The position numbers and the translations under genes are program-made. This document shows, in pieces, positions 30,715 through 53,545 of a stretch of 64,000 bases of DNA; the stretch's first letter is position 1; every line of letters starts with the position of its first letter. The DNA is taken from assembly GCF_055900595.2 (NCBI RefSeq), contig NZ_CM148325.1. One strand, written 5' to 3'. The notes below the pieces were generated by a model, which saw nothing but the letters and a program-made list of their open reading frames with translations, searched no databases and was not told where the DNA came from.

Positions 30715-30735
30715 TACATGCCCTCAACATAACTA

Positions 30736-35227: not shown

Positions 35228-35869
35228 TCAGCGACCAATCACCACAACCTGACCACCATCACCTTCATCTGCTGTGCTGATCTCCTGAGATACCACACGT
35301 GATCCCACGCGCATTTCACCGTACAGAACGGGCAGAACATTGCCCTGGGCAACCATATTATCCAGTGAAGAAGAATAGGTGTTCTGTTTGCCGTTATCCG
35401 TTGTCTGTGTGCGGGGGGTTTTGGGTTTAGGGGCCAGCATCTGTGCAACACCGCCAAGCGTCATACTGGCACCGAGAGAAAACAGCAGATTACTCGCCAT
35501 AATTCCTACCCCCGGCATCCATATAGCAACCGCCATAACAGCCGCCCCCAGCACAGCCTGAAACACACCACCACGTTTGGCTCCCGCCAGACGCGGCACG
35601 ATGTGGATCACGGCACCATTTGCCAGCGGTTCATTAAGACGGGCTGATAATTCGTTTTCGCCTGTATCACGCCCGGCAATACGCACCTGATACCAGCCGT
35701 CGCTCAGTTTCTGACGAAACGCAGGGAGCTGCGTGGCCAGCGCCCGGATGGCTTCGGCTCCCGTTTTCACACGAAGGTCGATGCGGCGGCCAAATCGTTG
35801 CAAATCCCCGTAAAGGCAGATGCGTGCCATGCCCGGTGACGCCAGAGGGAGTGTGTGCGTCGCTGCCAT
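35228..35869 (-). CDS. Tail assembly protein (lambda I-like)
   Basis: 213 aa; overlaps the K gene 3' end as in lambda; hydrophobic central segment. Confidence 0.8.
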   Translation of the reverse strand: MAATHTLPLASPGMARICLYGDLQRFGRRIDLRVKTGAEAIRALATQLPAFRQKLSDGWYQVRIAGRDTGENELSARLNEPLANGAVIHIVPRLAGAKRGGVFQAVLGAAVMAVAIWMPGVGIMASNLLFSLGASMTLGGVAQMLAPKPKTPRTQTTDNGKQNTYSSSLDNMVAQGNVLPVLYGEMRVGSRVVSQEISTADEGDGGQVVVIGR

Positions 35870-36510: not shown

Positions 36511-36514
36511 GGGA

Positions 36515-37213: not shown

Positions 37214-37542
37214 CAGTTCACCACCTGTTCAAACTCTGCGCTGAACTCAACACGCAGCATACTGACCCGCGACGACCATTTTGCGCAGGTCACCTTTATC
37301 TGCCGCCACTCATAAGGCGGCGTCCACAGAAAGGCTTTCCAGCCCCCGTGCTCTTCCAGAAACGACTCCAGCGCCGTGGCCTCCCAACGGGGGACAGAAA
37401 GCGTCACGCTGTACGTTTTCAGGTTGGCATTCAGCCCGGCAGGCGCTCGCTGGGAATAGCCATCACCAAAGCGCACCTTTCTTACAGAAGGGGCCGAAGC
37501 CACATCCATACCGGGTTTCACTTTCCAGCGGAAGGTTTTCAT
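37213..37542 (-). CDS. Minor tail protein M
   Basis: 109 aa MKTFRWKVKPGMDVASAPSVRKVRFGDGYSQRAP, lambda M-like. Confidence 0.9.
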   Translation of the reverse strand: MKTFRWKVKPGMDVASAPSVRKVRFGDGYSQRAPAGLNANLKTYSVTLSVPRWEATALESFLEEHGGWKAFLWTPPYEWRQIKVTCAKWSSRVSMLRVEFSAEFEQVVN

Positions 37543-40118
37543 CGTCCACCTCCGGAGAACAGGCCACCATCGCGCATCTGTGCCTGGATTTCATCACGGG
37601 CACCCTTGCGGGCCATGTCATACACCGCCTTCATCATCTGTGGACCTGGCAGACCATTCGTACCGTCGTTCTGAATCACCACGTTGTTGTTCTGCTCAAA
37701 CCTGATACCCTCTGAACGCCGCATTTGCGCCGGACTTCCGGTGCCACCGACATAACCGCCGGTGGCATAGCCGCGCATCAGCCGGTAGAGATTTCCCACG
37801 CCAATCCGGCTGGTTGCCTCCTTCGTGAAGACAAACTCACCACGGTGAACAATCCCCGCTGGCTCATATTTGCCGCCGGTTCCCGTAAATCCTCCGGTTG
37901 CAAAATGGAATTTCGCCGCAGCGGCCTGAATGGCTGTACCGCCTGACGCGGATGCGCCGCCACCAACAGCCCCGCCAATGGCGCTGCCGATACTCCCGAC
38001 AATCCCCACCATTGCCTGCTTAAGCAGAATTTCTGTCATCATGGACAGCACGGAGCGGGTGAAGCTGCGCCAGTTCTGTTCACTGCCGGTCAGCATCGCC
38101 GCCATATTCTGCGCAATACCATCAAAGGTCTGCGTGGCAGCACTTTTAACCTGCGACATACTGTCCGTGGCGCTCTCTTCCCACTCACTCCAGCCGGACT
38201 TCAGGCCTGCCATCCAGCTCCCGCGAAGCAGGTCTTCAGCCGCCCAGGTCTTTTTCTGCTCTGACATGACGTTATTCAGCGCCAGCGGATTATCGCCATA
38301 CTGTTCCTTCAGGCGCTGTTCCGTGGCTTCCCGTTCTGCCTGCCGGTCAGTCAGCCCCCGGCTTTTCGCATCAATGGCGGCCCGTTTTGCCCGTTGCTGC
38401 TGTGCGAATTTATCCGCCTGCTGCGCCAGCGCGTTCAGGCGCTCCTGATACGTAACCTTGTCGCCAAGTGCAGCCAGCTGGCGTTTGTACTCCAGCGTCT
38501 CATCTTTATGCGCCAGCAGGGATTTCTCCTGTGCAGACAGCTGGCGACGTTGCGCCGCCTCCTCCAGTACCGCGAACTGACTCTCCGCCTTCCACAAATC
38601 CCGGCGCTGCTGGCTGATTTTCTCATTTGCTCCGGCATGCTTCTCCAGCGTCCGGAGTTCAGCCTGAAGCGTCAGCAGGGCAGCATGAGCACTGTCTTCC
38701 TGACGCTCTCCCGCAGACACCTTCACGCCGGACTGTTTCGGCTTTTTCAGCGTCGCTTCATAATCCTTTTTCGCCGCCGCCATCAGCGTGTTGTAATCTG
38801 CCTGCAGGATTTTCCCGTCTTTCAGTGCCTTGTTCAGTTCTTCCTGACGGGCGGTATATTTCTCCAGCGGTGTCTGCAGCCGTTCGTAAGCCTTCTGCGC
38901 CTCTTCGGTATATTTCAGCCGTGATGCCTCAGAGTCGGCCCAGTCCTTTGCTGCCATCTCTCTGGCCTTTTCAAGATCGGCCTGCAACGTGGCGGCTGAA
39001 AGCCCAAGTTGCGCATTCGCTCTGTCCTCCCATGCTCCCCGGAGATTGGCAAGAAATGCTGAGGTTTTACCGCGCCGGTGGCTCCGGCTCTGATACCACT
39101 GCCATTTTTTGTCCGCCTCATCAAAAGCCTTTTCTGCTTTCTCCAGCATTTCCCGGGCAGTGTCCGGGCGACCAATATCCAGCACCGAATCCCACATGGA
39201 TTTGAATGCCCGCGCTGTCCTGTCTGCCCAGGTCTCCAGCGTGCCCATGTTCTCTTTCAGGCGGCGGGTCTGGTCATCAAACCCTTTCGTTGCGGCCTCG
39301 TTCGCCGCCTGCAATGCCCCTGCCTCATCGCCGGAACGCTGCAACTGAGCAACATACGCAATCTGCTCCGCCGTCACGTTATGGAACTGGCGCGCCATCG
39401 CCGTCAGCCCCGACGTCGGGTCTGTGGTCAGCTTCCCGAAGGCTTCAGCGACCTTGTCCACCTCCACGCCGGATGCAGAGGAGAAACGCGCCACACTCTG
39501 GCTGATGGACGCAATCTGAGCCTCACCGCTTACCCCCGCCTTAACCAGTGCGCTGAGTGACTCGCTGGTCTGGTTAAACGTCAGCCCTGCCGCCTGCCCG
39601 GCTCTGGACAGGACCAGCATACGATCTGCCGTCAGACCCGACTGATTGCCGGAAAGGACCAGCGTTTTGTTGAAATCGGACAGGGTTGAGTTGCCCTGAT
39701 ACCAGGCATACGCCAGCGCACCGGTCGCCACCGCCAGCGAGGTGGCCCCGACCATCGGCAGGGTGATCGCACCGGCAAGCCCCCTGAACATGGGGATCAT
39801 CCCGCCGAAGGAGTCCTTCACCTGACCGCCCTGTTGCAGCAGGATCAGCCACGGACTCTGCCCGCCTGCAAGCTGTGTGGCCACGTCGGTGAACTGTGCA
39901 GGCAGCATACGCATGGCGGCTTTATACTGTCCGACGGAAATCCCCGCTTTCTGTGCAGCCAGCGCCTGTCGGCTCAGCGACTGTTCAACGACTGCCGCTG
40001 TTTTTTTCGCATCACTTTCCGTACCGGAAAAATGACGCCTGACTCTGGCCATCTGCTCGTCAAATCTGGCCGCATCCAGACTTAAATCAACGACCAGATC
40101 GCCTACCGGTTCAGCCAT
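37539..40118 (-). CDS. Tail tape measure protein (lambda H-like)
   Basis: 859 aa MAEPVGDLVVDLSLDAARFDEQMARVRRHF; coiled-coil-rich; lambda H-like length and sequence. Confidence 0.92.
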   Translation of the reverse strand: MAEPVGDLVVDLSLDAARFDEQMARVRRHFSGTESDAKKTAAVVEQSLSRQALAAQKAGISVGQYKAAMRMLPAQFTDVATQLAGGQSPWLILLQQGGQVKDSFGGMIPMFRGLAGAITLPMVGATSLAVATGALAYAWYQGNSTLSDFNKTLVLSGNQSGLTADRMLVLSRAGQAAGLTFNQTSESLSALVKAGVSGEAQIASISQSVARFSSASGVEVDKVAEAFGKLTTDPTSGLTAMARQFHNVTAEQIAYVAQLQRSGDEAGALQAANEAATKGFDDQTRRLKENMGTLETWADRTARAFKSMWDSVLDIGRPDTAREMLEKAEKAFDEADKKWQWYQSRSHRRGKTSAFLANLRGAWEDRANAQLGLSAATLQADLEKAREMAAKDWADSEASRLKYTEEAQKAYERLQTPLEKYTARQEELNKALKDGKILQADYNTLMAAAKKDYEATLKKPKQSGVKVSAGERQEDSAHAALLTLQAELRTLEKHAGANEKISQQRRDLWKAESQFAVLEEAAQRRQLSAQEKSLLAHKDETLEYKRQLAALGDKVTYQERLNALAQQADKFAQQQRAKRAAIDAKSRGLTDRQAEREATEQRLKEQYGDNPLALNNVMSEQKKTWAAEDLLRGSWMAGLKSGWSEWEESATDSMSQVKSAATQTFDGIAQNMAAMLTGSEQNWRSFTRSVLSMMTEILLKQAMVGIVGSIGSAIGGAVGGGASASGGTAIQAAAAKFHFATGGFTGTGGKYEPAGIVHRGEFVFTKEATSRIGVGNLYRLMRGYATGGYVGGTGSPAQMRRSEGIRFEQNNNVVIQNDGTNGLPGPQMMKAVYDMARKGARDEIQAQMRDGGLFSGGGR

Positions 40119-40545
40119 ACCGGACTCCTCCTGCGATCCCTTCTGATACTGTCATCAGCATTACGTCATCCTCCGTCATGTCCGCCACATCCGTGGATGC
40201 AGGGATAACTTCATTCCCGTCCGGACCAAAGCGGACGCCTCCGGCAAGCCCTGCCGCTTTCTGCATCAGCACATCATCTTCAGGCTCTTCGTCAGCCTCG
40301 CGCCGGTTCAGCAGACTGAAATCCAGCGGATGCATCTCCGGATCGCTGAAAAACAGGCTGAGCACGGTGTACGTCAGCCCGGAAAAGTGCATATCCAACA
40401 GAACATCATGAAAATAATGGGTACTGTAAAAACGGTGCCAGTCGGCATACTCCGTGGATGACATCCCGGCAAGCATGGCACGCCAGTCGGGTCGCCCCAT
40501 CTCACGCGCCAGTTTCAGGGCAAAACTCAGCTCACCGTCGAACAC
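40111..40545 (-). CDS. T-frame segment of the tail assembly chaperone GT (expressed by -1 frameshift from G)
   Basis: 144-aa ORF in the -1 frame overlapping the G 3' end; lambda T-like sequence. Confidence 0.75.
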   Translation of the reverse strand: MFDGELSFALKLAREMGRPDWRAMLAGMSSTEYADWHRFYSTHYFHDVLLDMHFSGLTYTVLSLFFSDPEMHPLDFSLLNRREADEEPEDDVLMQKAAGLAGGVRFGPDGNEVIPASTDVADMTEDDVMLMTVSEGIAGGVRYG

Positions 40546-40949
40546 TTTCCCGCAGAAACAGGCTCTGCAGGCCCGGCGTCCTCTGTCTGTTCAGGGGCAT
40601 TATTCACAACAAACTCATACATACCAGACAGCCGGTACACCACGTTTTCAGCATGAGAAATTGCCTCCGTGGGCCAGGTGGTAAGCACTTCCTGCTCAAT
40701 CTGTTTAACGGCTTCATTCATGGAAGGCAGCTTTGTCTTCTGCGGATGGTTATGCCACAGGGACATCGCCACCACAAAAGCACCGGTTCTGATGGCGTCT
40801 TCCACAGTAAACTTCCGGTTGCTGTCTGACTCCGCCTGTTCTGCCTGCCGTTTCATCAGGGCGAGATGCTCAATACGCTGCAGGGCTGACAGTTCAGAAA
40901 GCGTGACGGTCACACCGTTATGTTCAAATGATTCGGTTTTCAGGAACAT
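40527..40949 (-). CDS. Tail assembly chaperone G
   Basis: 140 aa MFLKTESFEHNGVTVTLSELSALQRIEHLALMKRQ, lambda G-like. Confidence 0.88.
   Translation of the reverse strand: MFLKTESFEHNGVTVTLSELSALQRIEHLALMKRQAEQAESDSNRKFTVEDAIRTGAFVVAMSLWHNHPQKTKLPSMNEAVKQIEQEVLTTWPTEAISHAENVVYRLSGMYEFVVNNAPEQTEDAGPAEPVSAGKCSTVS
40545..40551 (-). other. Programmed -1 ribosomal frameshift slippery heptamer GGGAAAG (G to GT)
   Basis: Minus-strand GGGAAAG (plus CTTTCCC) at the G/T overlap, as in lambda. Confidence 0.7.
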
Positions 40950-40964
40950 CGCTGACTCTCCGGA

Positions 40965-41705
40965 TTAACTGGCGGTGACGTTGATTTCTGCAACCGCAGC
41001 AAGTTCACCATTACCGGATACGACCGGAATGTTGACCTTGCCTGCAGCAACGCCGTTCACGGTGATGGTCATACCACTGACCGACACGGTGGCTTTTGTT
41101 TTATCCGCAGACACCGCACGGAAGCTCTTGTCGGTTGCGCCTTCCGGCTGGAATGCCACGGTCAGCGTCGTGCTCTTCCCTTTCACCACCGAGGTGCTGG
41201 CAGGCGTCACGGTCATGCCGGTTGCCGCTGTTACCGTGCTGCGATCTTCTGCCATCGACGGACGTCCCACATTGGTGACTTTCACCGTGCGGGTGATCAC
41301 TTCCTTCGCCGTCACCGCCTTACCGATACTGCTGACCCAGCCGCGGAACACATCGATCGTGCCGTTCGGGAAGCGGATTTTATAGGCACGGGTATCACCT
41401 TCATTAAACCACGCCAGCAGCGCCTGCTGCCCCTGCTCTCCGGGCATCCACGCCAGCGTGAAGCTGGTATCTCCGGCAGATTTCTGCCCCTGTCCGGTCG
41501 CGGTCCAGTCCGCATCTTCATCATCGAGATAACTGTCGTCATAGGACTCAGCGGTCAGTTCGCCGGGCGTCAGGTCTTTAACCTTTGCCAGACGCGACCA
41601 GTCATTGTCTGAAAGCGGGTTTGCATAAGGGTCGCCGCTCCCGTTATAAACCCACAGTGTGGTCCCGGCCCCTTTCACCGGTGCCAGAGGATTTGGTGTT
41701 GGCAT
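40965..41705 (-). CDS. Major tail protein V
   Basis: ORF track 40965..41735; start set at [20 protein letters not shown] (246 aa); lambda V-like including the C-terminal Ig-like domain. Confidence 0.9.
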
Positions 41706-41712
41706 ATCGTCC

Positions 41713-42108
41713 TCACATTTCATAGGTAATGACATAAGTCAGATCGGCTGAACTCCACAGGCCCGCATCATCGTCGCGCCGGTAGTCATAGCCACTGGCC
41801 ACCATACTGGTGATCAAATCTGACAGTGCCGGGATATCGCTCATCACCGGATAAATCCGGGACTCCATCCACGCATCCAGCTCTGAATCCGGCACCTGAG
41901 CAGGCAGGAAAACTTCAATATGCAGCTCCGCCTGCCAGGTATCGCTGTCCAGCTCTTCGCCCGTGTATTCAGCGCCGGTGAGATAAACGGCAACTGCCGG
42001 AAAATCCGCCTCATCAAAAACAGCGGGGCGACCATCAAAAAACGTCGCCCCGGTGTCATGCTTCTCCAGTGCATCCAGTACGGCTGTACGGATATCAGTA
42101 TTTTTCAT
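41713..42108 (-). CDS. Tail terminator protein U
   Basis: 131 aa [33 protein letters not shown], lambda U-like. Confidence 0.9.
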
Positions 42109-42680
42109 CGCTTTATTACAATCCTCAGTTGTTGTTTCAGCGCATAGCTCAGTTCTTTTGGCAGACGTTCGCGTCGGATACGGTTAACGTTCTCATCAAA
42201 AGCCTGTTTCAGTGGGGCCGACATCGGAATTTTCACCACCTGAATGGGAAGACGATTACGCTTTTTCCTTCCCTTATCGTCATTGCCCTTCGCATACCTG
42301 GCTTCTGGCAGACGTTGCATAACATGCCAGCGCCCATTATTCAGTCGCTGGATGAATGCCCGCTGATAACGATGCTGACCGGCTTTGAGTATGCTGTTCG
42401 GGCGACGTCCCAGCATCCTGATCCCCAGCTTAATCACAGGAAGATCGCCGCGGTTAACGATAATTTTTGCGTTCGGATTTCTGACCGTAGCCCGTTTCAG
42501 TCTGGATCGCTCTTTAACAAGTTTTCTCGGCACCCGGGTTTCACGGGCGACCTGAGACGAAGACTGATTAATCGCCGTTGTGGCCACGCGGTTAATGGCC
42601 ATTGCTGACGCACCGGGCACCGCCGTTCTGCTGATACGGCTGAGGTTTTCAACGGCCTGCTCAAGACCCTGTATGGCCAT
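42105..42680 (-). CDS. Tail completion protein Z
   Basis: 191 aa, lambda Z-like; stop overlaps U start. Confidence 0.88.
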   Translation of the reverse strand: MAIQGLEQAVENLSRISRTAVPGASAMAINRVATTAINQSSSQVARETRVPRKLVKERSRLKRATVRNPNAKIIVNRGDLPVIKLGIRMLGRRPNSILKAGQHRYQRAFIQRLNNGRWHVMQRLPEARYAKGNDDKGRKKRNRLPIQVVKIPMSAPLKQAFDENVNRIRRERLPKELSYALKQQLRIVIKR

Positions 42681-42691
42681 ACATCCCCCTT

Positions 42692-43054
42692 TCAGCGGCG
42701 ACGATTAACGGCAGGCGGTACGCCCCGCCCAAGCCAGAGATGACAGCTTCCGCCATCATCCGGCGAAATCCGGTCTATCCAGAAGTTTTCCTCACCGATG
42801 GTCAGCGTGTCGCCACGCCGCAGTTGCCGCACATCATCAGTCCGGACAAACAGGGACGGGCTGGAGCCTTCAACGCGCACGCCCTGTCCGGCATAGCTGA
42901 TATTTTCAGGGTCATCAAAAACACCACGTATTACTGCGCCGGGCTGCTCACCGGATGTAATGGTGGCTGACGTTCCCATGTACCCGCGTATCGTTTCATC
43001 AGCCCGGGCAATGGCTGTATCAAAACCGTTATCCCTGATATTAATAACTTTCAT
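42692..43054 (-). CDS. Head-tail connector protein FII
   Basis: ORF track 42692..43090; start set at MKVINIRDNGFDTAIARADETIRGYMGTSATITSGEQ; lambda FII-like downstream of a divergent N-terminus. Confidence 0.82.
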   Translation of the reverse strand: MKVINIRDNGFDTAIARADETIRGYMGTSATITSGEQPGAVIRGVFDDPENISYAGQGVRVEGSSPSLFVRTDDVRQLRRGDTLTIGEENFWIDRISPDDGGSCHLWLGRGVPPAVNRRR

Positions 43055-43403
43055 CTGTAACAAGCCCCTCCAGGACAAGTTCCGCAACATTCACTGGATC
43101 AACTCTGACAGTCATACCTGTAACAACAATCTCCATATCACTGTCATCATGCGGATGTTTTCCCGCCACATGCAGGGTTTTGAGTACACGAACAGTGCTC
43201 ATTTCATCCCCGCCAGTGGAGTGGCTATACGTCATCAAATGCCTTTCGTTCTCATCACTCGCCTGGTTTTTGTCCTCTGCTTCCTCTTCCCATTCCGCCA
43301 CCCGCTGCGCTATCTCTGCGGCACTCCCGGATATATCCGGCTCACGCCCCAGAATCCGGGCCAGTTCATCAAGCCGTTTCAGATTTTGCTCTTTCGTTGC
43401 CAT
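43041..43403 (-). CDS. FI-like DNA-packaging/head-completion protein (divergent from lambda FI)
   Basis: ORF track 43041..43451; start set at MATKEQNLKRLDELARILG with an AGAGG Shine-Dalgarno; acidic; FI position between E and FII. Confidence 0.6.
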   Translation of the reverse strand: MATKEQNLKRLDELARILGREPDISGSAAEIAQRVAEWEEEAEDKNQASDENERHLMTYSHSTGGDEMSTVRVLKTLHVAGKHPHDDSDMEIVVTGMTVRVDPVNVAELVLEGLVTDESY

Positions 43404-43454
43404 ATCAGGCCTCTGTGAAAAAAGACACGGGGGCATTTCGCCCCCGCTCACGGA

Positions 43455-44483
43455 TTATTTCACCTGTACCACCACAAACTCATCCGGGTCCGGCAACACC
43501 ATCAGCGGCGCGGACTGCGTCATGGTAAATTCACGGGCGGGATCCCCCACCGTCAGCCAGTGTTTCGGATAACGGGAAGAGGCCACCACTCCTTCAGACA
43601 ACGCCTGTGCATCCTGAATGGCACCGTAACAACGGATCCCATCTGCAGCAGTATTCCCCAGGACCAGCGTGCCGTCTGGCAGATAACGTTTTTCGGTACC
43701 GTCCTCTGCCACATAAGACGTTTTCGCCACCACAATGGCCAGATCACCGTAATACCCTTTGAAAGACACCACCGCCCCCAGGTCTTTCACTGCCGTTTCG
43801 AGTTGCGAATTTGAACCGCGACGGGTATCCAGTTTTTCGCGGAACAGCTTAAAACCATTCAGCAGACGCCAGACGCTACCGTCCATAATGGCAATATTCA
43901 CAAGGCCGCTGGCCTGGTCGCAGTAGAGGTCAATATCATGCGCAGGATCGAACGTGTCACGATCGTGCTCAGACCATTTTTTACCACTGGCCTGCGTAAT
44001 GTTATTCGCCGGCGATCTGCCAAAATCGACCTCAATTTTCTCGAACTGGTCTCCTTCCATGGTGTATTTGCCATACAGCACGGCATTTACCGCCTGCATT
44101 TCTTCCACCTGGACAATCGCGTACTCTTCCTGTTTGAGGTTATCGGTAATGATACGCAGACGGCGGTAAGCCGGATCGTTCAGTTGAGCCGGATCTTCAC
44201 CAGGAAGGCGCTCAACCGCCTGCCGGGAATTAAATTCGTGTTTCGGCTTGACGTAGCCCGGACGCAAGACGCGGGTTTCACCACCACGATGACGCAGCAC
44301 TTTTCCTTCAACAACCGGGGAGACATAGGCCGCCACCGGCGTTTTTCCGGTAATTTTGTCCAGCATCACCTCTTCGGTATGGAAATTCACCGTACGGCGG
44401 AAAAACAGCTCCAGAAACAGCGCACGAAATTTCACTTTTTGTTCGGTATAACCGAGTAACTGGCGGGTCGTAAACAATCCCAT
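43455..44483 (-). CDS. Major capsid protein E
   Basis: 342 aa; lambda E-like along the whole length (KLDTRRGSNS, YPKHW, GDPAREFTM motifs). Confidence 0.9.
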   Translation of the reverse strand: MGLFTTRQLLGYTEQKVKFRALFLELFFRRTVNFHTEEVMLDKITGKTPVAAYVSPVVEGKVLRHRGGETRVLRPGYVKPKHEFNSRQAVERLPGEDPAQLNDPAYRRLRIITDNLKQEEYAIVQVEEMQAVNAVLYGKYTMEGDQFEKIEVDFGRSPANNITQASGKKWSEHDRDTFDPAHDIDLYCDQASGLVNIAIMDGSVWRLLNGFKLFREKLDTRRGSNSQLETAVKDLGAVVSFKGYYGDLAIVVAKTSYVAEDGTEKRYLPDGTLVLGNTAADGIRCYGAIQDAQALSEGVVASSRYPKHWLTVGDPAREFTMTQSAPLMVLPDPDEFVVVQVK

Positions 44484-44540
44484 AAATCAGTTCCTTTCAT
44501 TCAGAAATCAGTCAGGCCACCGCGGTGGCCTGATAACGTG

Positions 44541-44888
44541 TTACGGCAGCGCCGCGTGACTCAGGGCACTGCCAGCAAAGGCGTTGGCCTTTTTGTGTTC
44601 ATCCACACTGTCAGGCCAGCGGATTGCCTCCGTCGCAAAAGTCCCCGACTTGTAATACGTCAGCACCGTCTCTGTGCCTTCAAGCGGCAGTACCAGTATG
44701 CCAACCGCACCTCCGGCTTTCTGTCCGTCCCAGACCACCAGTTTCCCGGTGGCTTCATCCAGCATCAGGGGCGTCAGTGCCGGTGTTGCCGAGGAAATCC
44801 CGCTGCTGCCTGTGGCGGTGTGAGCCGGATCATTACCGGCAAAAATACGTACTTCCGCACGCTGTTCAGTGATGGTTTTCGTTACCAT
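44541..44888 (-). CDS. Head decoration protein D
   Basis: 115 aa with DPAHTAT and TPLMLD motifs, lambda D-like. Confidence 0.85.
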   Translation of the reverse strand: MVTKTITEQRAEVRIFAGNDPAHTATGSSGISSATPALTPLMLDEATGKLVVWDGQKAGGAVGILVLPLEGTETVLTYYKSGTFATEAIRWPDSVDEHKKANAFAGSALSHAALP

Positions 44889-44924
44889 ATTGTCAAAACC
44901 TCCTATTGATGGTCAGCACTGACT

Positions 44925-46430
44925 TCATGGCATGGCCATGAGCATTTTCACGTCCGCATCACCGTCTGCTGACGTCTGTGGCACGCCACCCTGTACCGCT
45001 GCCGGTGAATGGTTCGCCATGAAATGTTCAAACATGGCGGTTGTGGATGCAGAGACCGGTTCTGCCTTACCTGATCCCGCAGCCAGCACAGCCCGGGCGT
45101 TCTCCACGGTCATTCCCGGGCAGGCAGCCAGCTGTTCAGCCTGCGCCTCAGCCCCTTTTGCCTCATCCAGGGCCATGATCTGATCACGGAGTGATGGTCC
45201 GGCATCCGCCTGCGGTGAAGCTGCCAGGATCGGGCGGGCTTTTTCCACCGTCATCTCCGGCATCGCCGCCAGCGTTGCCGCCAGTTGTTCACGACCTTTC
45301 GCCTCTTCACACGCCATAATGCGATCGGCTTCACTCTGCGCGGATGCCACCGGCTGCTGTGGTGCCGCCGCGGCCAGGATCTCCCGGGCCTGTTCAACGC
45401 TCATGCCCTGTTGTCCCGCCAGCATCGTGGCAAGCTGTTCACGTCCTTTCGCTTCCTTACTCGTCAGGATCCCCATCACTCGCTGGTTCTCCTGCGCGGC
45501 GGCTTCCGTTGCAGTTAATTGCGGCATAGTGCCTCCTGTATCATGTGTGTACAGCGCCGTGGTCATCACACTGATGGCATCCGACGCATTGACTAATTCA
45601 TCCGCCAGCCCGGCCTCAATGCCGGACTGACCTTCAAAAACGGCGGCCTCTGTTCCCGTGACCACATCCACAGACAGCCCGGTATACATCGCCACTTTTT
45701 CGGCAAACATCCGGTGTGCCGCATCAATGCGCTGCTGCATGTCCTGACGCACCTCTTCCGGTAAGGCTTCAAACTGATTGCCATCCACCTTGTGCGCCCC
45801 GGCATAAATCAGCGTGATATCCACACCGGCCTGCGCCAGATGACCGGCATAGCTGAGATGGCTCATCATCACGCCAATGGAGCCGATACGGGATGTCTGG
45901 GTAACCAGCCGTCGGGAGCAGGCCGACGCCAGCAGCATGGCTGCAGAACAGGCCGTGTCATTGCACAGTGCCCAGACCGGCTTCTGCTGACGGAGGCGGT
46001 AAATCATGTCAGCGCAGTCAAACGCGCCTGCGGCCTGCCCGCCCGGACTGTCAATGTCCAGCAGTACGCCCCGGACAGCGGTGTCCGCCATTGCCTGCTG
46101 AAGACAGGCGACAATGCCGTCATAGCCTGTCATTCCGGAAAATGGCCGCATACCACCCAGCCGGTGCACCAGCATGCCGGTCACCGGCAGTACAGCAATA
46201 CCGTTCACCACCCGGTAAACACGGGCCGGTCGTTTACCTCCGGCCATGTACTCGTCCGTTTCAGCCAGCATTCCGGGAGCATCAAGCTGTACCTGCTGTT
46301 GTGGTACCGAAAGACTTGCTGCCCCCATCTCGCGCCCGAGCGCGCAAAAGAAAACCCGCGCATAGGCGGGCTCCAGAAGCAGCGGTTCATTGAATGCTGC
46401 GGCAATAATGTGTGAAAGATTACGTCTCAC
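44925..46430 (-). CDS. Head maturation protease C with scaffold-like C-terminal repeats (lambda C/Nu3-like)
   Basis: 501 aa; lambda C-like N-terminus (AFNEPLLLEPAYARVFFCAL), S49 protease core, repeated EAKGREQLA...TVE.AR.ILAA segments. Confidence 0.85.
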   Translation of the reverse strand: MRRNLSHIIAAAFNEPLLLEPAYARVFFCALGREMGAASLSVPQQQVQLDAPGMLAETDEYMAGGKRPARVYRVVNGIAVLPVTGMLVHRLGGMRPFSGMTGYDGIVACLQQAMADTAVRGVLLDIDSPGGQAAGAFDCADMIYRLRQQKPVWALCNDTACSAAMLLASACSRRLVTQTSRIGSIGVMMSHLSYAGHLAQAGVDITLIYAGAHKVDGNQFEALPEEVRQDMQQRIDAAHRMFAEKVAMYTGLSVDVVTGTEAAVFEGQSGIEAGLADELVNASDAISVMTTALYTHDTGGTMPQLTATEAAAQENQRVMGILTSKEAKGREQLATMLAGQQGMSVEQAREILAAAAPQQPVASAQSEADRIMACEEAKGREQLAATLAAMPEMTVEKARPILAASPQADAGPSLRDQIMALDEAKGAEAQAEQLAACPGMTVENARAVLAAGSGKAEPVSASTTAMFEHFMANHSPAAVQGGVPQTSADGDADVKMLMAMP

Positions 46431-48012
46431 GTGGTGTTGTCTCCTCTTCCGGCCTGCGACTCGCCGCTATCTGCTGCTGATACGCCTGCGCTATCCACAC
46501 CGGACGTGAGAGTCCGGCTTTTTCCCGCTCTGCAGATTCCCTGACCTGCTGGCGGAAAATGTCCTGATAATCCTCACCCATCAGCGCCAGCTCTTTCTCA
46601 TACGTGCTCAGTCCGGCCTCAATGCGCATCACCGATTCCTGGACCTCCTTGAGCCCGTCAATGGCCATTCTTCCGGCTCCAATCCACTCTGCCCGTGACC
46701 AGGATGAACGCGCCTGATAAAAATCAAAACGCGCCCGTGGCGGACGAATAATCCCCCGCAGAAGAGCCTCTTCCAGCCAGCAGGAAAACATCTGCGTGGC
46801 CAGCCGGGCCGCAATAAATTTTCGCCGCCCCATAAAATAGCGCCACGACTCATTGGCGGAGGCGCGGGCACTTGAATAACTGACCTTCGAGTAATCACGG
46901 GACAACTGTTCGTAGGAAACGCCAAGACCGGCGGCGATATACCGCAGCAGCGCCTGTTCAAGCGCAGAAAATCCATTGTCTGAATCCTGCGCAGTCTGTA
47001 GTTTCAGATCATCACCGGGGAAAAGGTGCGGAATTTTGACACCGCCCAGTGTCACGTTATTCGTGTCATACCAGCTGGAAAACTTCTCCAGAATATTAAT
47101 AAGCGGATTATCCTTCTGCTCCTGCGGCGCACCGGCGATATATTCAAAGGCCTTTTCGGTATCAAGTTCACTTTCAATCGTCGCTGCATACATGGCCCTC
47201 ACTATGGCCGACTGAAGCTGTGTTGCCTGCAGGGAATCGAGCATCTTCAGCCGTTCCATGACGCTGTAAAACTGATTAGCCCCACGGGTCTGCCCGTCCT
47301 CCACCGGCTCGAAAATATGCAGCATGGCCGGACGCCCGGTGGGAAGTTCACGCGGGATCCGTTCCCATCGTCCACTACCAGAGAACGGAAAATCATCCTC
47401 ACAGATATGGTACGCGACGGCACGGCCATATCGATCGACCTCCACACCGGCCCGCAGAAAACGGTTCCCCATACCGTGTCCTGGCGTGTCCACCCGTTTC
47501 GGACTCACGGCTTTAAAACGCGTACGGAATAACTGCGTGGTTTCCGTATCCCAGACCGGCTGAACAAAGATTTCGCCGTTAAACGCATGAACGCCCACAC
47601 CTTCACGGATAAATTCCGTGAACGTGCGTTTTCCTTCCACATCGATCTCGCCAGACATCCCTTCGGCGTATTCCGACCAGGCCGCCTCCACCTCATCGAC
47701 AAAGCTTTTTGCTGCGGTCTCCCGCATCCCCAGCCAGCGCCAGTTCGGACGGTAGCTGATCAGAAACATATGCCCGACTATGTGATCCTTATGCAGAGCC
47801 ACCGCATTAGCCGCTATTCCGTTATTGCGCACCAGATCATCTGCCCGGGCATTCCCCAGACGCAACGCGGGCAGCAGGGCCGCATCGACACTCTGTGCCG
47901 GTGGCAACCACTCCTCCATTTGCCCGCCAAATCCTGCGCCGCCCCCGTTGTAGCTGAGACTCTCACGAAGCGGAACGCCGTTCACATCAATCAGGACAGG
48001 CGTTCTTTTCAT
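46420..48012 (-). CDS. Portal protein B
   Basis: 530 aa, lambda B-like length and sequence. Confidence 0.9.
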   Translation of the reverse strand: MKRTPVLIDVNGVPLRESLSYNGGGAGFGGQMEEWLPPAQSVDAALLPALRLGNARADDLVRNNGIAANAVALHKDHIVGHMFLISYRPNWRWLGMRETAAKSFVDEVEAAWSEYAEGMSGEIDVEGKRTFTEFIREGVGVHAFNGEIFVQPVWDTETTQLFRTRFKAVSPKRVDTPGHGMGNRFLRAGVEVDRYGRAVAYHICEDDFPFSGSGRWERIPRELPTGRPAMLHIFEPVEDGQTRGANQFYSVMERLKMLDSLQATQLQSAIVRAMYAATIESELDTEKAFEYIAGAPQEQKDNPLINILEKFSSWYDTNNVTLGGVKIPHLFPGDDLKLQTAQDSDNGFSALEQALLRYIAAGLGVSYEQLSRDYSKVSYSSARASANESWRYFMGRRKFIAARLATQMFSCWLEEALLRGIIRPPRARFDFYQARSSWSRAEWIGAGRMAIDGLKEVQESVMRIEAGLSTYEKELALMGEDYQDIFRQQVRESAEREKAGLSRPVWIAQAYQQQIAASRRPEEETTPRET

Positions 48013-48215
48013 AACCTCACTCCCAGCGGACGACGGCGACGTCGGGTTGTCCCCAGTACCGACTCCGCATCATTGATCGCCCGGTTAAGCTCATCCAGAG
48101 AAGCCGCCGTATATTCAATTCTGCGACCATCTTTCTGGACAGACACCACCCGTTTACCGGTTAATAAATCAAGGCGCGCCTGACGCAGCGCCTGCAGTTC
48201 AGCGACTGTAACCAT
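48009..48215 (-). CDS. Head-tail joining protein W
   Basis: 68 aa with LTGKRVVSVQKDGRRIEYTAASLDEL, lambda W-like. Confidence 0.85.
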   Translation of the reverse strand: MVTVAELQALRQARLDLLTGKRVVSVQKDGRRIEYTAASLDELNRAINDAESVLGTTRRRRRPLGVRL

Positions 48216-48546
48216 TCACTCCTCCGGACAGCTTCGCTGCCAGTTCTTTAAGGGTTGGCCGGGTCGTCTCTTCTTCCCGGGATTTTGCCAGTACAGCCAG
48301 ATCAAGCTGCCAGCGTTGCACGGACACACGTAATGCCGCGTAGGCATACACCAGGCAGTCCAGCGCTTCGTTACGCCGCTTTTTGTTATCCCACAGCAGA
48401 CGCATCTTTCCTTTTTCCCACTTCTCCACAAGCTCTTCCGCGGCCAGTTGCTGCGCCTCTGTCTGCGAAAAAATCTCCGGATCATCAGGAAAACGGATGG
48501 CATACGACGTGGCTTCATCCGCAGGCGTGGGATCGGCTTTCATACG
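48199..48546 (-). pseudogene. Terminase large subunit A, C-terminal fragment (separated from the rest by an IS insertion)
   Basis: Translation MKADPTPADEATSYAIRFPDDPEIFSQTEAQQLAAEELVEKWEKGKMRLLWDNKKRRNEALDCLVYAYAALR matches the lambda gpA C-terminus; abuts the IS left end at 48547. Confidence 0.85.
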
Positions 48547-48599
48547 GTAACCGGCTCATTTAAACCGTCTGGTCTGTTTCCTCCGGCTCTACAAAAATA

Positions 48600-49277
48600 A
48601 TGTCCATCATTTTTAATGGACACTATCGTATGAAACACCGGACCTGGATCACTGAAGCTTTACGTCTTCACTTTGAAGAACATTTACCCCGGGTTGTGGC
48701 CGGGCGTCGCCTGGGTGTACCAAAATCAACAGTTTGTAGTATGTTCGTGCGCTTTCGGAGAGCTGGCCTTTCGTGGCCTTTGCCCGCAGGCATGTCGGAG
48801 CAGGAACTTGATGCCTGCCTTTACGGACAATTTTCCACGGTACCAGTCGTACGTCCTGAAAGCACCGTTATATCCGAAGCCCCCGTGGTAAAAAAACGTC
48901 CCCGGCGGCCCAACTTCCCTTATGAGTTTAAAATCGCCTTAGTGGAGCAGTCACTGCAGCCCGGAGCCTGTGTGGCGCAGATCGCCCGGGAAAACGGAAT
49001 CAACGATAACCTGCTCTTCAACTGGCGCCATCAATACCGGAAAGGTGGCCTGCTGCCTTCCGGAAAAAATATGCCGGCACTGCTTCCCGTGACGTTAACG
49101 CCGGAGCCGGATAATAAAATCCCGGCCCCCGCACAGGAACCAGAGCGGATAAATACACCGTCCGACAGTCTGTGTTGTGAGCTGGTTCTGCCGGCCGGAA
49201 CTCTCAGGCTTAAAGGTAAACTGACGCCGGCGTTATTACAGACACTTATCCGCGAAATAAAAGGGAGCAGCCACTGA
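48600..49277 (+). CDS. IS66-family accessory protein (orfA/TnpA-like)
   Basis: First ORF of the IS; start uncertain (alternative Met at 48630); HTH-like N-terminal region. Confidence 0.65.
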   Translation: MSIIFNGHYRMKHRTWITEALRLHFEEHLPRVVAGRRLGVPKSTVCSMFVRFRRAGLSWPLPAGMSEQELDACLYGQFSTVPVVRPESTVISEAPVVKKRPRRPNFPYEFKIALVEQSLQPGACVAQIARENGINDNLLFNWRHQYRKGGLLPSGKNMPALLPVTLTPEPDNKIPAPAQEPERINTPSDSLCCELVLPAGTLRLKGKLTPALLQTLIREIKGSSH

Positions 49278-49624
49278 TGATATCTCTCCCTGCAGGTTCG
49301 CGTATCTGGCTGGTTGCAGGTATCACCGATATGCGAAATGGCTTTAACGGCCTGGCATCAAAAGTTCAGAACGTCCTGAAGGATGACCCGTTCTCCGGAC
49401 ACCTGTTCATCTTCCGCGGACGCCGGGGTGACCAGATAAAAGTGTTGTGGGCTGACAGTGACGGACTGTGCCTCTTCACCAAACGCCTGGAGCGGGGCCG
49501 CTTCGTCTGGCCAGTCACCCGTGACGGCAAGGTGCACCTTACTCCGGCTCAGTTATCCATGCTTCTTGAAGGTATCAACTGGAAGCACCCGAAACGAACG
49601 GAACGCGCTGGAATCCGCATATAA
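49277..49624 (+). CDS. IS66-family Orf2/TnpB protein
   Basis: 115 aa MISLPAGSRIWLVAGITDMRNGFNGLASKVQNVL, a signature IS66 Orf2 sequence; overlaps orfA stop. Confidence 0.85.
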   Translation: MISLPAGSRIWLVAGITDMRNGFNGLASKVQNVLKDDPFSGHLFIFRGRRGDQIKVLWADSDGLCLFTKRLERGRFVWPVTRDGKVHLTPAQLSMLLEGINWKHPKRTERAGIRI

Positions 49625-49643
49625 CCCGTTGTAAAGTGAGGAT

Positions 49644-51215
49644 ATGGACACCTCACTTGCTCATGAGAACGCCCGCCTGCGGGCACTGTTGCAGACGCAA
49701 CAGGACACCATCCGCCAGATGGCTGAATACAACCGCCTGCTCTCACAGCGGGTGGCGGCTTATGCTTCCGAAATCAACCGGCTGAAGGCGCTGGTTGCGA
49801 AACTGCAACGTATGCAGTTCGGTAAAAGCTCAGAAAAACTTCGTGCAAAAACCGAACGGCAGATACAGGAAGCACAGGAGCGAATCAGCGCACTTCAGGA
49901 AGAAATGGCGGAAACGCTGGGTGAGCAATATGACCCGGTACTGCCATCCGCCCTGCGCCAGTCTTCAGCCCGTAAACCGTTACCGGCCTCACTTCCCCGT
50001 GAAACCCGGGTTATCCGGCCGGAAGAGGAATGCTGTCCTGCCTGTGGTGGTGAACTCAGTTCTCTGGGATGTGATGTGTCAGAGCAACTGGAGCTTATCA
50101 GCAGCGCCTTTAAGGTTATCGAAACACAACGTCCGAAACAGGCCTGTTGCCGGTGCGACCATATCGTGCAGGCACCAGTACCTTCAAAACCCATTGCACG
50201 CAGTTATGCCGGAGCGGGGCTTCTGGCCCATGTTGTCACCGGGAAATATGCAGACCATCTGCCGTTATACCGCCAGTCAGAAATATACCGTCGTCAGGGA
50301 GTGGAGCTGAGCCGTGCCACACTGGGGCGCTGGACAGGTGCTGTTGCTGAACTGCTGGAGCCGCTGTATGACGTCCTGCGCCAGTATGTGCTGATGCCCG
50401 GTAAAGTCCATGCTGATGATATCCCCGTCCCGGTCCAGGAGCCGGGCAGCGGTAAAACCCGGACAGCCCGGCTGTGGGTCTACGTCCGTGATGACCGTAA
50501 CGCCGGTTCACAGATGCCCCCGGCGGTCTGGTTCGCGTACAGTCCGGACCGGAAAGGTATCCATCCACAAAATCACCTGGCCGGTTACAGCGGTGTGCTT
50601 CAGGCCGATGCTTACGGTGGTTACCGGGCGTTATACGAATCCGGCAGAATAACGGAAGCCGCGTGTATGGCTCATGCCCGGAGAAAAATCCACGATGTGC
50701 ATGCAAGAGCGCCCACCTACATCACCACGGAAGCCCTGCAGCGTATCGGTGAACTGTATGCCATCGAGGCAGAGGTCCGGGGCTGTTCAGCAGAACAGCG
50801 TCTGGCGGCAAGAAAAGCCAGAGCCGCGCCACTGATGCAGTCACTGTATGACTGGATACAGCAACAGATGAAAACACTGTCGCGTCACTCAGATACGGCA
50901 AAAGCGTTCGCATACCTGCTGAAACAGTGGGATGCACTGAACGTGTACTGCAGTAATGGCTGGGTGGAAATCGACAACAACATCGCAGAGAACGCCTTAC
51001 GGGGAGTGGCCGTAGGCCGGAAAAACTGGATGTTCGCGGGTTCCGACAGCGGTGGTGAACATGCGGCGGTGTTGTACTCGCTGATCGGCACATGCCGTCT
51101 GAACAATGTGGAGCCAGAAAAGTGGCTGCGTTACGTCATTGAACATATCCAGGACTGGCCGGCAAACCGGGTACGCGATCTGTTGCCCTGGAAAGTTGAT
51201 CTGAGCTCTCAGTAA
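49644..51215 (+). CDS. IS66-family transposase (orfC)
   Basis: 523 aa with leucine-zipper N-terminus, CxxC zinc motif (CPACGG) and DDE core. Confidence 0.88.
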
Positions 51216-51245
51216 ATATCAATACGGTTCTGACGAGTCGCTTAC

Positions 51246-52834
51246 TTCATACGGGCATAGAGAATTTCTTTTGCGGTGTCCGTCCCCACTTCACACAGAT
51301 ACACGCCCCGCTGATTGCGGGTTTTTGGCATGGTGATCACCGGCTTGCCATAGACAGATGCGCCTTTTACCGGCAGCACCCGGAAAACACCGTGTTTTTT
51401 TGACCTCTGATAAACGATTTCGCCATCGATCCCCCCGATGTCCCAGCAGACACGGGAAATGGTCATTTCGGTTCCGTCTGCATGGCGGTATTTTTTGTTG
51501 ATCGCTGCATCCACACGTAACAGCGTCTCTTCCTCATCGGGACGTCCCATAATAATGATTTTATCCACCAGAAAGGCTTCCTCTCCCGGAGCCCATCCCC
51601 AGACATACATCTCAAAACGGTTTCGCTGCGAGTCAATGCCCGCCGTCAGATAAACCACCCGGGCAGGCACCGCCGCCGTGTAACGCACAACCTTATCCAT
51701 CAGTACCTGGTGATCGAGTTTTTCGCCCACGGCCTCTTCCCAGGTCTCGCCCAGCGTGGTGTTCACAAAGGTTTTCAGGCCGTTGGGATCTTTCAGTGCA
51801 TCCAGCCAGTCATAGACTATCTGTACCCAGGTGGTGAACGGACTGTACGCCGTCCAGATATGGAAAGTGATGGAGCGCGGCGGCGGAATTTCATCACCCC
51901 GGGCGCTGAAAAACATCAGGCCGTCACGGGTCCACATGCCCGTGTTTTCAGAGATCCACCGCCCGTTACTCTGGTCAAGCTCAGACTGATGGATCACACA
52001 GCCATGATGCTCACAAAGGTAGAAAACGCTTTCGGGGCTGTCCTTCTCCCATTTAAGGCCAAAAGGCGTGGATTCATCGCCAAATTTCAGATACTGCTCC
52101 TCCCCACAGTGCGGGCAGGGCACATAAAAACGCATGAAATGTGCCGACTCGTTAGCGGCTTTTTCGATCTGGCAGGAGCCTTTGATTTTAGGCGTCGAGC
52201 CGCGAATGGATTTTGGCCATACAGAGCCCTCAATACGCTTATCCCCCAGCAGGGTTGGCGAGCCCTCTTTTTCAACATCAGGTTCAAACGATGAGAGTTC
52301 GTCATAGCAGACCACGTCCACGGATTTTTCACGGTAGTTTTTTGCTGCCGCACCACCCAGGCACCAGAAGCCCACACCCGATGAAAAGCGTTTCAGCGTG
52401 AGAGTATTGTCACGATGTTTACGCCCCAGCCATGGAGAAAGGTCTTTCAGACATGGCACATCCCGAATCGTCGCCTCCACGTGAGACTTCATAAAATCTT
52501 CAGCGGCAGAATCCGTGGGCTGAAAAAGCAGACTGTTTCGGGATTTATGCTCAATAAAATACCCGACCACCCCCAGCAACATCTTTGTATAACCAACACG
52601 GGCAGATTTAATCAGGTTAACAGTGCGAATCAGATCGTTGCCCATACAGTTCATGATGGCGATCTGGAACGGCAGCGTTTTCCATTCTCCCTCACCATAT
52701 GAAGATTCTTTAGGCAGATAATAATTTTGATCAGCCCATTCAACTGCCGTCACCGGCAATGCCCTTATCAGGGGCTGTAATGCTGTTGTGACAGCACTCA
52801 TCATATTATTCAGTTGTTGCTCTGATATATTCAT
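51246..52834 (-). pseudogene. Terminase large subunit A, N-terminal fragment (truncated by the IS insertion)
   Basis: ORF track 51242..52891; lambda gpA-like from MNISEQQLNNMMSAVTTALQ through ...GTDTAKEILYARMK, then a stop contributed by the IS end (GTAAGC). Confidence 0.85.
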
Positions 52835-53315
52835 CGAGTAAATCCGGTAATTTATCCCCTGCCCGCGCACACTGATTTGCCCCCTTCGCAATAAGGGTTT
52901 TCAGATGGTCAAGATGGCGCGGTGTTAAATCAGGAAACTGTCGTTGCATGGATAAAGGGATGGAATCAAGCGTACTGGATAACGCCATTGCCAGCTTGCT
53001 GAGGGCAAAAATACAGAACCCGGTGTCAATAAGTTTTCCTTTTGACACCTCATTTTTTAACTGCTGTGTAACAGCCTGTTCTGCTGTCAGTTCCCATCTG
53101 GCAATAAGCAATTTCTCCTCATAGTCGTCTTCGCTATCGCCATCAGGCACATCGTTTTTACTTCTTCTCAGATACGATATGTAAAAATCACGCCAGGCAT
53201 CCAGATCCAGTTGCCCTCGCTTATTCGATATCGGGGCACCCGGCAATTTCTGCAGTCTGCGAAGCTGGCGATCGGTCAGACTCAAATGCCTGGCAACTTC
53301 AGTCTGCGTAGCCAC
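52806..53315 (-). CDS. Terminase small subunit Nu1
   Basis: 169 aa; N-terminal HTH MATQTEVARHLSLTDRQLRRL; C-terminal half lambda Nu1-like; 3' end overlaps the A start. Confidence 0.82.
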   Translation of the reverse strand: MATQTEVARHLSLTDRQLRRLQKLPGAPISNKRGQLDLDAWRDFYISYLRRSKNDVPDGDSEDDYEEKLLIARWELTAEQAVTQQLKNEVSKGKLIDTGFCIFALSKLAMALSSTLDSIPLSMQRQFPDLTPRHLDHLKTLIAKGANQCARAGDKLPDLLDEYIRATTE

Positions 53316-53479: not shown

Positions 53480-53545
53480 AACCGGACATGGATCCCGGAA
53501 AATTTTCATAAATAGCGAAAACGCGCGAGGTCGACGCCCCGTAAC
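53480..53545. other. cos site (cosN cohesive-end region)
   Basis: Minus-strand GGGCGTCGACCTCGCGCGTTTTCGCTATTTATGAAAATTTTCCGG closely matches the lambda left end GGGCGGCGACCTCGCGGGTTTTCGCTATTTATGAAAATTTTCCGG; cosN 12-mer at 53528-53539, about 210 bp upstream of Nu1. Confidence 0.85.

Follow-up and report, generated by a model that had tools for sequence, protein, structure and literature searches.

In phage lambda, the C terminus of the terminase large subunit (TerL) carries the endonuclease centre, a coiled-coil helix and the portal tether (PMC9026076). The mutation Aam42, a nonsense codon at the fifth-to-last position of the lambda gene, prevents binding to the prohead and leaves a very low yield; the defect is recessive and complemented in trans (PMC4856287). 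Among resident prophages, Sp4 of Escherichia coli O157:H7 Sakai carries an IS that disrupts nu1, which encodes the small terminase subunit, and Sp4 DNA is still packaged, probably by the terminase of Sp14; the defective prophages of this strain have also been found to recombine (PMC2669165). The insertion sequence ISCro1, named from Citrobacter rodentium ICC168, is widespread on the plasmids and chromosomes of E. coli, Shigella, Salmonella and Klebsiella. It has a published length of 2699 bp and an 8-bp target duplication (PMC12115866), and in C. rodentium it has multiplied to 24 copies (PMC3072379).

The window analysed here is a stretch of 64,000 nucleotides from contig NZ_CM148325.1 (assembly GCF_055900595.2), which includes the late genes of an E. 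coli prophage of the phage-21/lambda type integrated at ompW. Very probably, ISCro1 has inserted by transposition into the gene for the large terminase subunit of this prophage and has thereby blocked self-packaging. The gene has the GpA_ATPase and GpA_nuclease domains in common with lambda gpA and with gene 2 of phage 21, and it lies in the same gene order, cos-Nu1-A-W-B; its identity is 66% in amino acids over 639 residues to the former and 94% in nucleotides to the latter. While lambda gpA is uninterrupted, the frame of about 641 amino acids expected of a gpA of this type is absent here, the gene being disrupted after codon 530 of 642, and the product is without the equivalents of lambda residues 531-641.

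Two pieces of gpA are present on the minus strand. The N-terminal fragment (51242..52834; codons 1-530 plus TAA) is read from 52834 to 51245 as 530 amino acids ending in ...ILYARMK, and its TAA stop is supplied by the GTAA of the right IS end. It aligns with lambda gpA residues 1-530 and contains the Nu1-binding and ATPase part (Pfam GpA_ATPase, E 4e-55) and most of the nuclease domain (GpA_nuclease positions 3-221 of 294). The C-terminal fragment (48199..48546; the duplicate of codons 529-530 followed by codons 531-642 and the stop) is read from 48543 to 48202 as MK-ADPTPADE... and aligns with lambda residues 531-638. It covers GpA_nuclease positions 230-287 and, with the domain layout taken from PMC9026076, contains the KKRRNEALDC motif (the region of lambda E586), a predicted coiled-coil helix and the portal-binding tail. 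In the alignment, the insertion point after codon 530 corresponds to lambda T530/L531. The sequence-only reading had placed the break between ...ILYARMK and ADPTPADE..., and the fragment reads, Pfam, tblastn and the lambda alignment all agree with that position. A search of PDB sequences with the restored gpA gave no match, and the domain mapping is therefore based on Pfam, on the alignment with lambda gpA and on published work. The C-terminal fragment has been deposited as the NCBI TPA record HFT1107433.1, "terminase gpA endonuclease subunit, partial [E. coli]".

Between the two pieces lies a complete 2699-bp element (48547..51245, plus strand), present once in the window and 100% identical over its whole length to copies annotated as "IS66-like element ISCro1 family transposase" on E. 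coli chromosomes and on plasmids, the latter from several enterobacterial genera. The name ISCro1 is given through these copies, named "ISCro1 family" by NCBI PGAP, and through the published length. The three-gene order of the IS66 family and of ISCro1 is found on the plus strand: tnpA, encoding an accessory protein of 225 amino acids (48600..49277; Pfam HTH_Tnp_1, E 9e-15) and annotated as tnpA in the identical copies; tnpB, encoding an Orf2-like accessory protein of 115 amino acids (49277..49624; TnpB_IS66, E 5e-40), whose start overlaps the tnpA stop in TGATG; and tnpC, encoding a DDE transposase of 523 amino acids (49644..51215; DDE_Tnp_IS66, E 2.5e-103). In TnpC, positions 1-283/284 of the DDE_Tnp_IS66 profile are covered, and LZ_Tnp_IS66, zf-IS66 and DDE_Tnp_IS66_C are also recognised. 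The terminal inverted repeats are GTAACCGGCTCATTTAAACCGT on the left (48547..48568, 22 nt) and GTAAGCGACTCGTCAGAACCGT, given as reverse complement, on the right (51224..51245). Both open with GTAA and they are imperfect, with 16/22 matches (73% complementarity) and 18/30 over a longer span. Both the family assignment and the imperfect GTAA ends proposed in the sequence-only reading are thus borne out, the former by the Pfam domains of the three ORFs and the ISCro1 identity. ISEc8, with which a comparison had been suggested, is ruled out as the identity of the element, since annotated ISCro1 copies are 100% identical. In length, gene layout, 8-bp duplication and sequence this copy is the known ISCro1, from which the insertion site alone differs. 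From its three intact ORFs and its identity to widespread copies, it may be taken as able to transpose. A promoter scan of the IS and its junctions found no promoter-like site, and terminator-like sites in the same region were not more frequent than in shuffled sequence.

The element is flanked on both sides by an exact copy of TTCATACG (48539..48546 and 51246..51253), as had been read from the letters; the odds that an 8-bp match occurs by chance at two fixed positions are about 1.5e-5. The unoccupied sites in four related E. coli prophages have a single TTCATACG with contiguous flanks, and in these empty-site relatives the flanks of the search query form one stretch of 4094 bp, that is, 6801 less 2699 less 8. 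Duplications of 8 bp were also found at seven other ISCro1 copies examined. When the IS and one copy of the duplication are removed in silico, an ORF of 1929 nt is restored. In E. coli GF4, a sister prophage that occupies the same ompW site has an intact gpA to which this ORF is identical at 1929/1929 positions; in colinear alignment with the intact gene of GF60, 1916/1929 positions are identical. Precise excision would thus regenerate an intact terminase gene, as the sequence-only reading had claimed. The insertion is recent and the only lesion of gpA, because the restored ORF does not differ from the GF4 allele; its recency, also proposed earlier, is further supported by the identity of the IS to other copies and by the exact duplication. 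No ISCro1 insertion at the same site was found among 5426 complete E. coli genomes, and the exact 39-nt pattern of the right junction had no match in 100,044 species-representative genomes, a set to which the source genome does not belong.

The rest of the late region is well preserved within the window. The intact Nu1 gene (52806..53315, minus strand; Pfam Phage_Nu1) has the 510-nt length of its annotated counterparts in GF60 and GF4. A cosN-like site, GGGCGTCGACCT (53528..53539, minus strand), differs at one position from the cosN pattern of lambda, GGGCGGCGACCT. It lies in a cos region that is presumably lambda-like and whose flanks probably match cosQ and I2 of lambda. The lambda-type context cos - Nu1 - A - W - portal is completed by W (48009-48215) and the portal gene B (46420-48012), both on the minus strand. 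The remaining head and tail module (27956..48215, minus strand) is full length and free of stops by tblastn and comprises W, portal B, protease C, D, E, FI, FII, Z, U, V, G, T, H, M, L, K, I, J, two small ORFs, the tail fibre and the tail-fibre assembly gene. Altogether, full-length alignments with proteins of the related LH50-c prophage were obtained for 25 late-gene products, a series that begins with Nu1 and ends with the tail-fibre assembly protein, gaps being limited to the divergent ones, namely Nu1, the tail fibre and gpI. Q, Rz, an endolysin and a holin-like ORF are also in the window, the last with matches to holin families only below the Pfam cut-off. An exact look-up of the YadA-like protein of the prophage returned no record. 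The earlier claim that all other morphogenetic genes are intact and that the inactivation is a single hit stands for the 25 full-length late genes, with the single hit holding for the in-window part only.

The insertion of ISCro1 has duplicated TTCATACG and breaks the 642-codon gene between codons 530 and 531. Since the IS end gives an immediate TAA, the N-terminal product consists of exactly residues 1-530. It is thus without the final portion of the nuclease centre (the motif of lambda E586) and without both the predicted coiled-coil helix and the tail that binds the portal at the C terminus. From lambda genetics, a protein of 530 residues would be expected neither to complete cos cleavage nor to dock on the prohead, so that the DNA of the prophage would stay unpackaged. 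The prophage is therefore probably unable to package its own DNA when acting alone, a loss deduced by homology from the 66% amino acid identity to lambda gpA and the 94% nucleotide identity to phage 21 gene 2. Upon induction, lysis and the production of proheads and tails would still be expected from lambda genetics, because Q, the lysis genes, Nu1, cos and the in-window head and tail genes are intact. The predicted defect resembles that of lambda Aam42 and other C-terminal truncations of gpA, in which the C terminus is likewise missing; in Aam42, however, a nonsense codon removes the last few residues, whereas here the loss, caused by an IS, amounts to 112 residues and extends into the nuclease centre. 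Sp4 of Sakai is also a lambdoid prophage with a terminase knocked out by an IS and with cos kept, and it provides a published precedent for this type of lesion and for rescue in trans; its lesion is in the small subunit rather than in the large one, and it has several other defects, while here the in-window late genes are otherwise intact. The IS in the Sp4 nu1 gene reportedly belongs to a different family.

The consequence of the insertion might nevertheless be smaller than this scheme suggests. It is a distinct possibility, if not the expected outcome, that the prophage is not dead for packaging and that transfer is little affected, either because a terminase of a co-resident lambdoid prophage, compatible also in its cos specificity, acts in trans or because recombination with such a prophage readily restores gpA. 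The routes of escape would be precise excision between the 8-bp repeats or recombination with another lambdoid gpA, which would reverse the lesion, and the supply of a compatible terminase in trans, which would bypass it. Nu1 and cos are intact, close relatives of gpA are very common (the region is matched in 3507/5426 E. coli genomes, many at 95-99% identity), and both the trans complementation of Aam42 (PMC4856287) and the packaging of Sp4 together with the recombination of defective prophages (PMC2669165) serve as precedents. Against this, tblastn found no second gpA, intact or otherwise, within the window; moreover, rescue would alter the consequence of the insertion, not its nature.

A further reading, rather unlikely in our judgement, is that the IS is not the only or the first lesion and that it struck a prophage already defective, for instance in early, integration or replication genes beyond the window, the hit in gpA then being a single stage of a more extended decay. 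Judging from GF4, about 9 kb of the prophage with its early, replication and integration genes (in GF4 P, an O-like gene, cro/cI, an exonuclease gene, xis and int) lies beyond position 64000. The GF4 sister prophage, with its intact gpA, has itself decayed, with a deletion of 18.5 kb in the head and tail genes and with rem reduced to a pseudogene, and the holin candidate below the Pfam cut-off is a possible weak point within the window. On the other hand, all late genes checked in the window are full length, the region of late regulation and lysis matches that of GF4 at 99.8% identity without gaps, and the absence of any substitution in gpA relative to the intact allele disfavours a long neutral decay.

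ISCro1 has entered this module in other prophages as well. Among the 5426 complete E. coli genomes, a search that detects one relative orientation only found three independent insertions elsewhere in gpA; one, 32 bp away, has the duplication GTCCGTCC, and the other two have CCACGGCC and GCATTAGC. Other copies interrupt the S49 protease gene, lie upstream of Nu1 or sit at a deletion in the portal. Ten matches in complete E. coli genomes that looked like an IS together with a terminase, nine of which were checked, are at other sites and were rejected as same-site insertions. If hits in packaging and head genes were recurrently selected, the host would keep the prophage cargo, such as the YadA-like adhesin, and the immunity while dropping infectious particles. 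Such selection, or a target preference of ISCro1 for the module, is quite improbable. By our own rough estimate, the number of insertions found, four independent ones in gpA including the present one and the others in the module, is close to the random expectation given the many ISCro1 copies.

That the IS was misplaced during repeat resolution and the true genome has an intact terminase gene is scarcely believable and already largely refuted: many E. coli genomes have ISCro1 as a multicopy repeat (a median of 2 matching places and a maximum of 34) and misjoins classically arise at repeats, but a misjoin would not produce an exact 8-bp duplication around a complete element at a site that is empty and unduplicated in relatives, and a misassembly is unlikely because both junctions occur, 100% identical to the window, in the independent short-read assembly SRR27886137, two contigs of which stop 30 bp into the IS, one at its left end and one at its right, while the same C-fragment gene is present in an NCBI TPA assembly. 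There is likewise next to no chance that both pieces of gpA are made and reassemble into a working enzyme: the left duplication, CGTATGAA on the minus strand, does supply an in-frame ATG (codon 529) for an ORF of MK plus residues 531-642, the N-terminal fragment ends cleanly at K530 and Q-antiterminated late transcription would probably read through the IS, but the 22 nt upstream of the ATG (GTTTAAATGAGCCGGTTACCGT) have no recognisable ribosome-binding site, the scan of the IS and junctions revealed no promoter-like site, the break falls within the nuclease domain (Pfam positions 221/230 of 294) rather than at a domain boundary, and to our knowledge a split gpA has no precedent.

The disruption of gpA by ISCro1 is an ordinary instance of IS-driven prophage inactivation, an already known kind of prophage decay, and its importance beyond annotation is little. 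In annotation, the two gpA pieces represent one pseudogene interrupted by ISCro1, and the exact junction could serve as a clonal marker of the lineage that carries it. The prophage is best scored as probably deficient in self-packaging, otherwise complete in its late genes, and a potential candidate for rescue through a helper terminase or through recombination. It offers a clean case of prophage decay, in that the GF4 sister, with an identical and intact gpA, has instead shed an 18.5-kb part of its head and tail genes; one and the same prophage is therefore being disabled by different routes in different hosts.

The phage-21/lambda-type prophage integrated at ompW carries a copy of ISCro1, a member of the IS66 family, at 48547-51245, within the gene of the large terminase subunit (gpA, TerL). 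On the plus strand the left junction reads ...GGCTTTCATACG, followed from 48547 by GTAACCGGCTCATTTAAACCGT..., and the element ends with ...ACGGTTCTGACGAGTCGCTTAC at 51245, after which the prophage resumes with TTCATACGGGCATAGAG. Reading of the window sequence bore out the description and the coordinates of the insertion proposed in the sequence-only reading, and by script the element measures 2699 bp, the octamer TTCATACG is present at both 48539-48546 and 51246-51253 as the exact 8-bp duplication that had been claimed, and the two pieces of gpA join in frame. The terminal inverted repeats, described as imperfect and beginning with GTAA, match at 16/22 and 18/30 positions, with GTAA at both ends. 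From a coding perspective, the element contains three plus-strand open reading frames (ORFs) of 225 aa (48600-49277, Pfam HTH_Tnp_1), 115 aa (49277-49624, TnpB_IS66, E 5e-40) and 523 aa (49644-51215, DDE_Tnp_IS66 over the whole profile, E 2.5e-103), the last of which also has the IS66 leucine-zipper, zinc-finger and C-terminal domains; these matches uphold the assignment to the IS66 family. The element is ISCro1, and ISEc8 is ruled out, because it is 100% identical over 2699 bp to copies annotated as IS66-like element ISCro1 family transposase, TnpA or TnpB, which occur on E. coli chromosomes as well as on Escherichia, Shigella, Salmonella and Klebsiella plasmids, and because ISCro1 has been described as 2699 bp long with an 8-bp duplication (PMC12115866). 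It was named in Citrobacter rodentium, where 24 copies are present (PMC3072379); the window holds one.

Transposition of ISCro1 duplicated 8 bp and cut TerL short at residue 530. The N fragment (minus strand, 52834 to 51245, 530 residues) contains GpA_ATPase and positions 3-221 of the 294 of GpA_nuclease, and the C fragment (minus strand, 48543 to 48202) contains positions 230-287 of the same Pfam profile, which bears out the split of gpA. Read on the minus strand, the GTAA end of the element gives AAG TAA; since this supplies the stop codon, the N fragment terminates exactly at ...ILYARMK(530), with zero foreign residues. The left copy of the duplication reads CGT ATG AA on the minus strand, and its in-frame ATG gives rise to the ORF MKADPTPADE... 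of the C fragment. Precise excision would indeed restore the gene: in silico deletion of the element and one copy of the duplication yields an uninterrupted ORF of 1929 nt (642 codons plus stop). The restored gene shows 66% amino acid identity to lambda gpA over 639 residues. At the nucleotide level it is 94% identical to the large terminase gene of phage 21 (gene 2) and 96% identical to the corresponding sequence in the inducible PhiR12 phages. The break point aligns to lambda T530/L531, and the KKRRNEALDC motif of the C fragment aligns to lambda residues 581-590, E586 among them. Arens et al. 2019, a study cited in PMC9026076, reportedly found E586 to be required for cos cleavage. A second gpA was sought across the 64-kb window and was not found.

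Misassembly of the element into gpA is very unlikely, because both junctions recur in a separate short-read assembly, SRR27886137, where two contigs match the window at 100% identity for 3655 and 6378 bp and, as is expected at a repeat, break off 30 bp into the right and the left end of the element, respectively, and because the C-fragment protein is itself in NCBI (TPA HFT1107433.1, terminase gpA endonuclease subunit, partial [Escherichia coli]), the record from which the organism name is taken. Relatives of this prophage in which the site is unoccupied occur commonly; for a 6.8-kb query their flanks are contiguous within a 4094-bp stretch (6801-2699-8), and the site, ...GGCTTTCATACGGGCATAGAG..., has a single octamer in four of these loci (L003, L005, L006 and L011). 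ISCro1 at exactly the 48547 site was absent from the complete E. coli RefSeq genomes (n=5426).

The closest relative is the prophage of E. coli GF4 (L011, NZ_CP172217.1 913948-957148), which lies between yciE and ompW and thus at the same chromosomal site, and is 99.8% identical to the window prophage over 12.7 kb (22 mismatches, 0 gaps). Its gpA is intact, whereas that of the window prophage is split, and a stretch of about 18.5 kb that corresponds to 28353-46877 of the window, from the portal through the tail-fibre assembly gene, is missing in GF4. The intact GF4 allele and the restored gpA are identical at 1929/1929 nt; therefore the interrupted gene has not changed since the insertion, in agreement with the recency that had been claimed for it. 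In the adjacent trp genes identity falls to 94.6%, which points either to hosts of different lineages or to recombination in the trp region. The chromosomal flank at 1-23330 (topA to the trp operon, yciG/F/E and a partial ompW) reaches at best 98.8% identity among the 5426 complete E. coli genomes, and the host lineage is thus not closely represented in them.

As regards packaging, the endonuclease centre of lambda TerL is followed by a predicted coiled-coil helix and, at the C terminus, by a tether that binds the portal (PMC9026076). The Aam42 nonsense mutation, which affects the fifth-to-last codon, is already enough to prevent binding to the prohead and to reduce the yield to a very low level, a defect that is rescued in trans (PMC4856287). 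A 530-residue TerL would be unable to support packaging, and the prophage acting alone would consequently make no filled heads. Late transcription is antiterminated by Q and thus probably reads through the element, so that proheads, tails and lysis would still be expected. Two routes of reversal are possible, precise excision between the 8-bp repeats, restoring the ORF, and recombination with another lambdoid gpA, the latter being probably the likelier. A direct precedent for rescue in trans of a lambdoid terminase hit by an IS is Sp4 of strain Sakai, whose nu1 is IS-disrupted and which was nevertheless packaged, probably by the terminase of Sp14 (PMC2669165).

The prophage lies on the minus strand and extends leftward from past 64000 to about 23.3 kb, in the order Q (57973-58668), two tRNAs, holin-like ORF, lysozyme (endolysin), Rz, ORF with a TonB-C domain, cos, Nu1, split gpA, the genes from W through tail-fibre assembly, and lastly the cargo. 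The other morphogenetic genes are intact, as had been proposed: all 25 late-gene products of LH50-c, an annotated related prophage, taken without gpA, align full length to the window, with gaps only in the divergent Nu1, tail fibre and gpI. The cos region (context 53490-53570) resembles that of lambda, with a cosN (minus strand, 53528-53539, GGGCGTCGACCT) that differs from the lambda pattern at one position and flanks that presumably correspond to lambda cosQ and I2. Intactness was judged within the window; by analogy with GF4, about 9 kb of early genes, comprising replication genes, cro/cI, exonuclease, xis and int, would follow past 64000, and a full ompW past the integrase end.

Between Q and the lysis genes lie a phage-borne tRNA-Lys(UUU) (57609-57685) and a CAT-anticodon tRNA (57687-57762), called Met by ARAGORN and tRNA-Ile in the GF4 annotation, both on the minus strand. 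The lysis cassette (minus strand, 55730-57193) is phage-21-like in appearance and includes Rz; the hydrophobic stretch at the N terminus of its endolysin resembles a signal-anchor of SAR type. About 650 bp upstream, a 90-aa holin-like ORF matches HP1 and P21 holins only below the Pfam cut-off, and between it and the endolysin a 125-aa ORF lies on the opposite strand (56387-56764), its GF4 equivalent being annotated as an incomplete pseudogene. By correspondence with the GF4 annotation, an offset places a nin-like region at about 60430-61053, with putative hokD (type I toxin) and rem, the latter annotated with an internal stop in GF4. At the tail-fibre end the minus-strand cargo comprises a 546-aa YadA-like trimeric autotransporter (25883-27520, YadA_anchor, E 1e-16), with internal repeats at an offset of about 99 bp (26283-26882) and 77 residues more than its LH50-c homologue (78% identity), together with a protein of 151 aa whose HTH is sigma-70 region-4-like (25366-25818). 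At the prophage-chromosome junction (23200-24352) chromosomal homology to other E. coli stops at 23330, the position of a partial ompW copy in GF4; past it, an ORF6N-domain ORF (23744-24352) is intact in the window and frameshifted in GF4.

Ten apparent hits for the element together with terminase in complete E. coli genomes, 9/10 of which were checked individually, are all independent ISCro1 insertions at other positions, and their own 8-bp duplications accompany 7/7 complete copies among those checked. Three lie elsewhere in gpA, one of them merely 32 bp from the window site (duplication GTCCGTCC), two in the S49 head protease gene, and one each upstream of Nu1, between the lysis genes and the TonB-like gene, and at a portal-to-tail deletion. 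These insertions, in related lambdoid prophages of other E. coli, occupy 3079-5777 of locus L002, 3529-6227 of L008 and 4605-7303 of L007, and the others are in L001, L006, L004, L005 and L009.

The element is a known IS, its target belongs to a gene family that has been studied well, IS inactivation of terminase genes in lambdoid prophages has been published before, and the exact allele is already in public data, annotated as partial. The count of such ISCro1 hits, from a search covering one orientation, is by rough estimate close to the random-insertion expectation. An enrichment of ISCro1 hits in lambdoid packaging and head genes, the sole less ordinary reading, is unlikely, and the finding is correct, tidy and ordinary.
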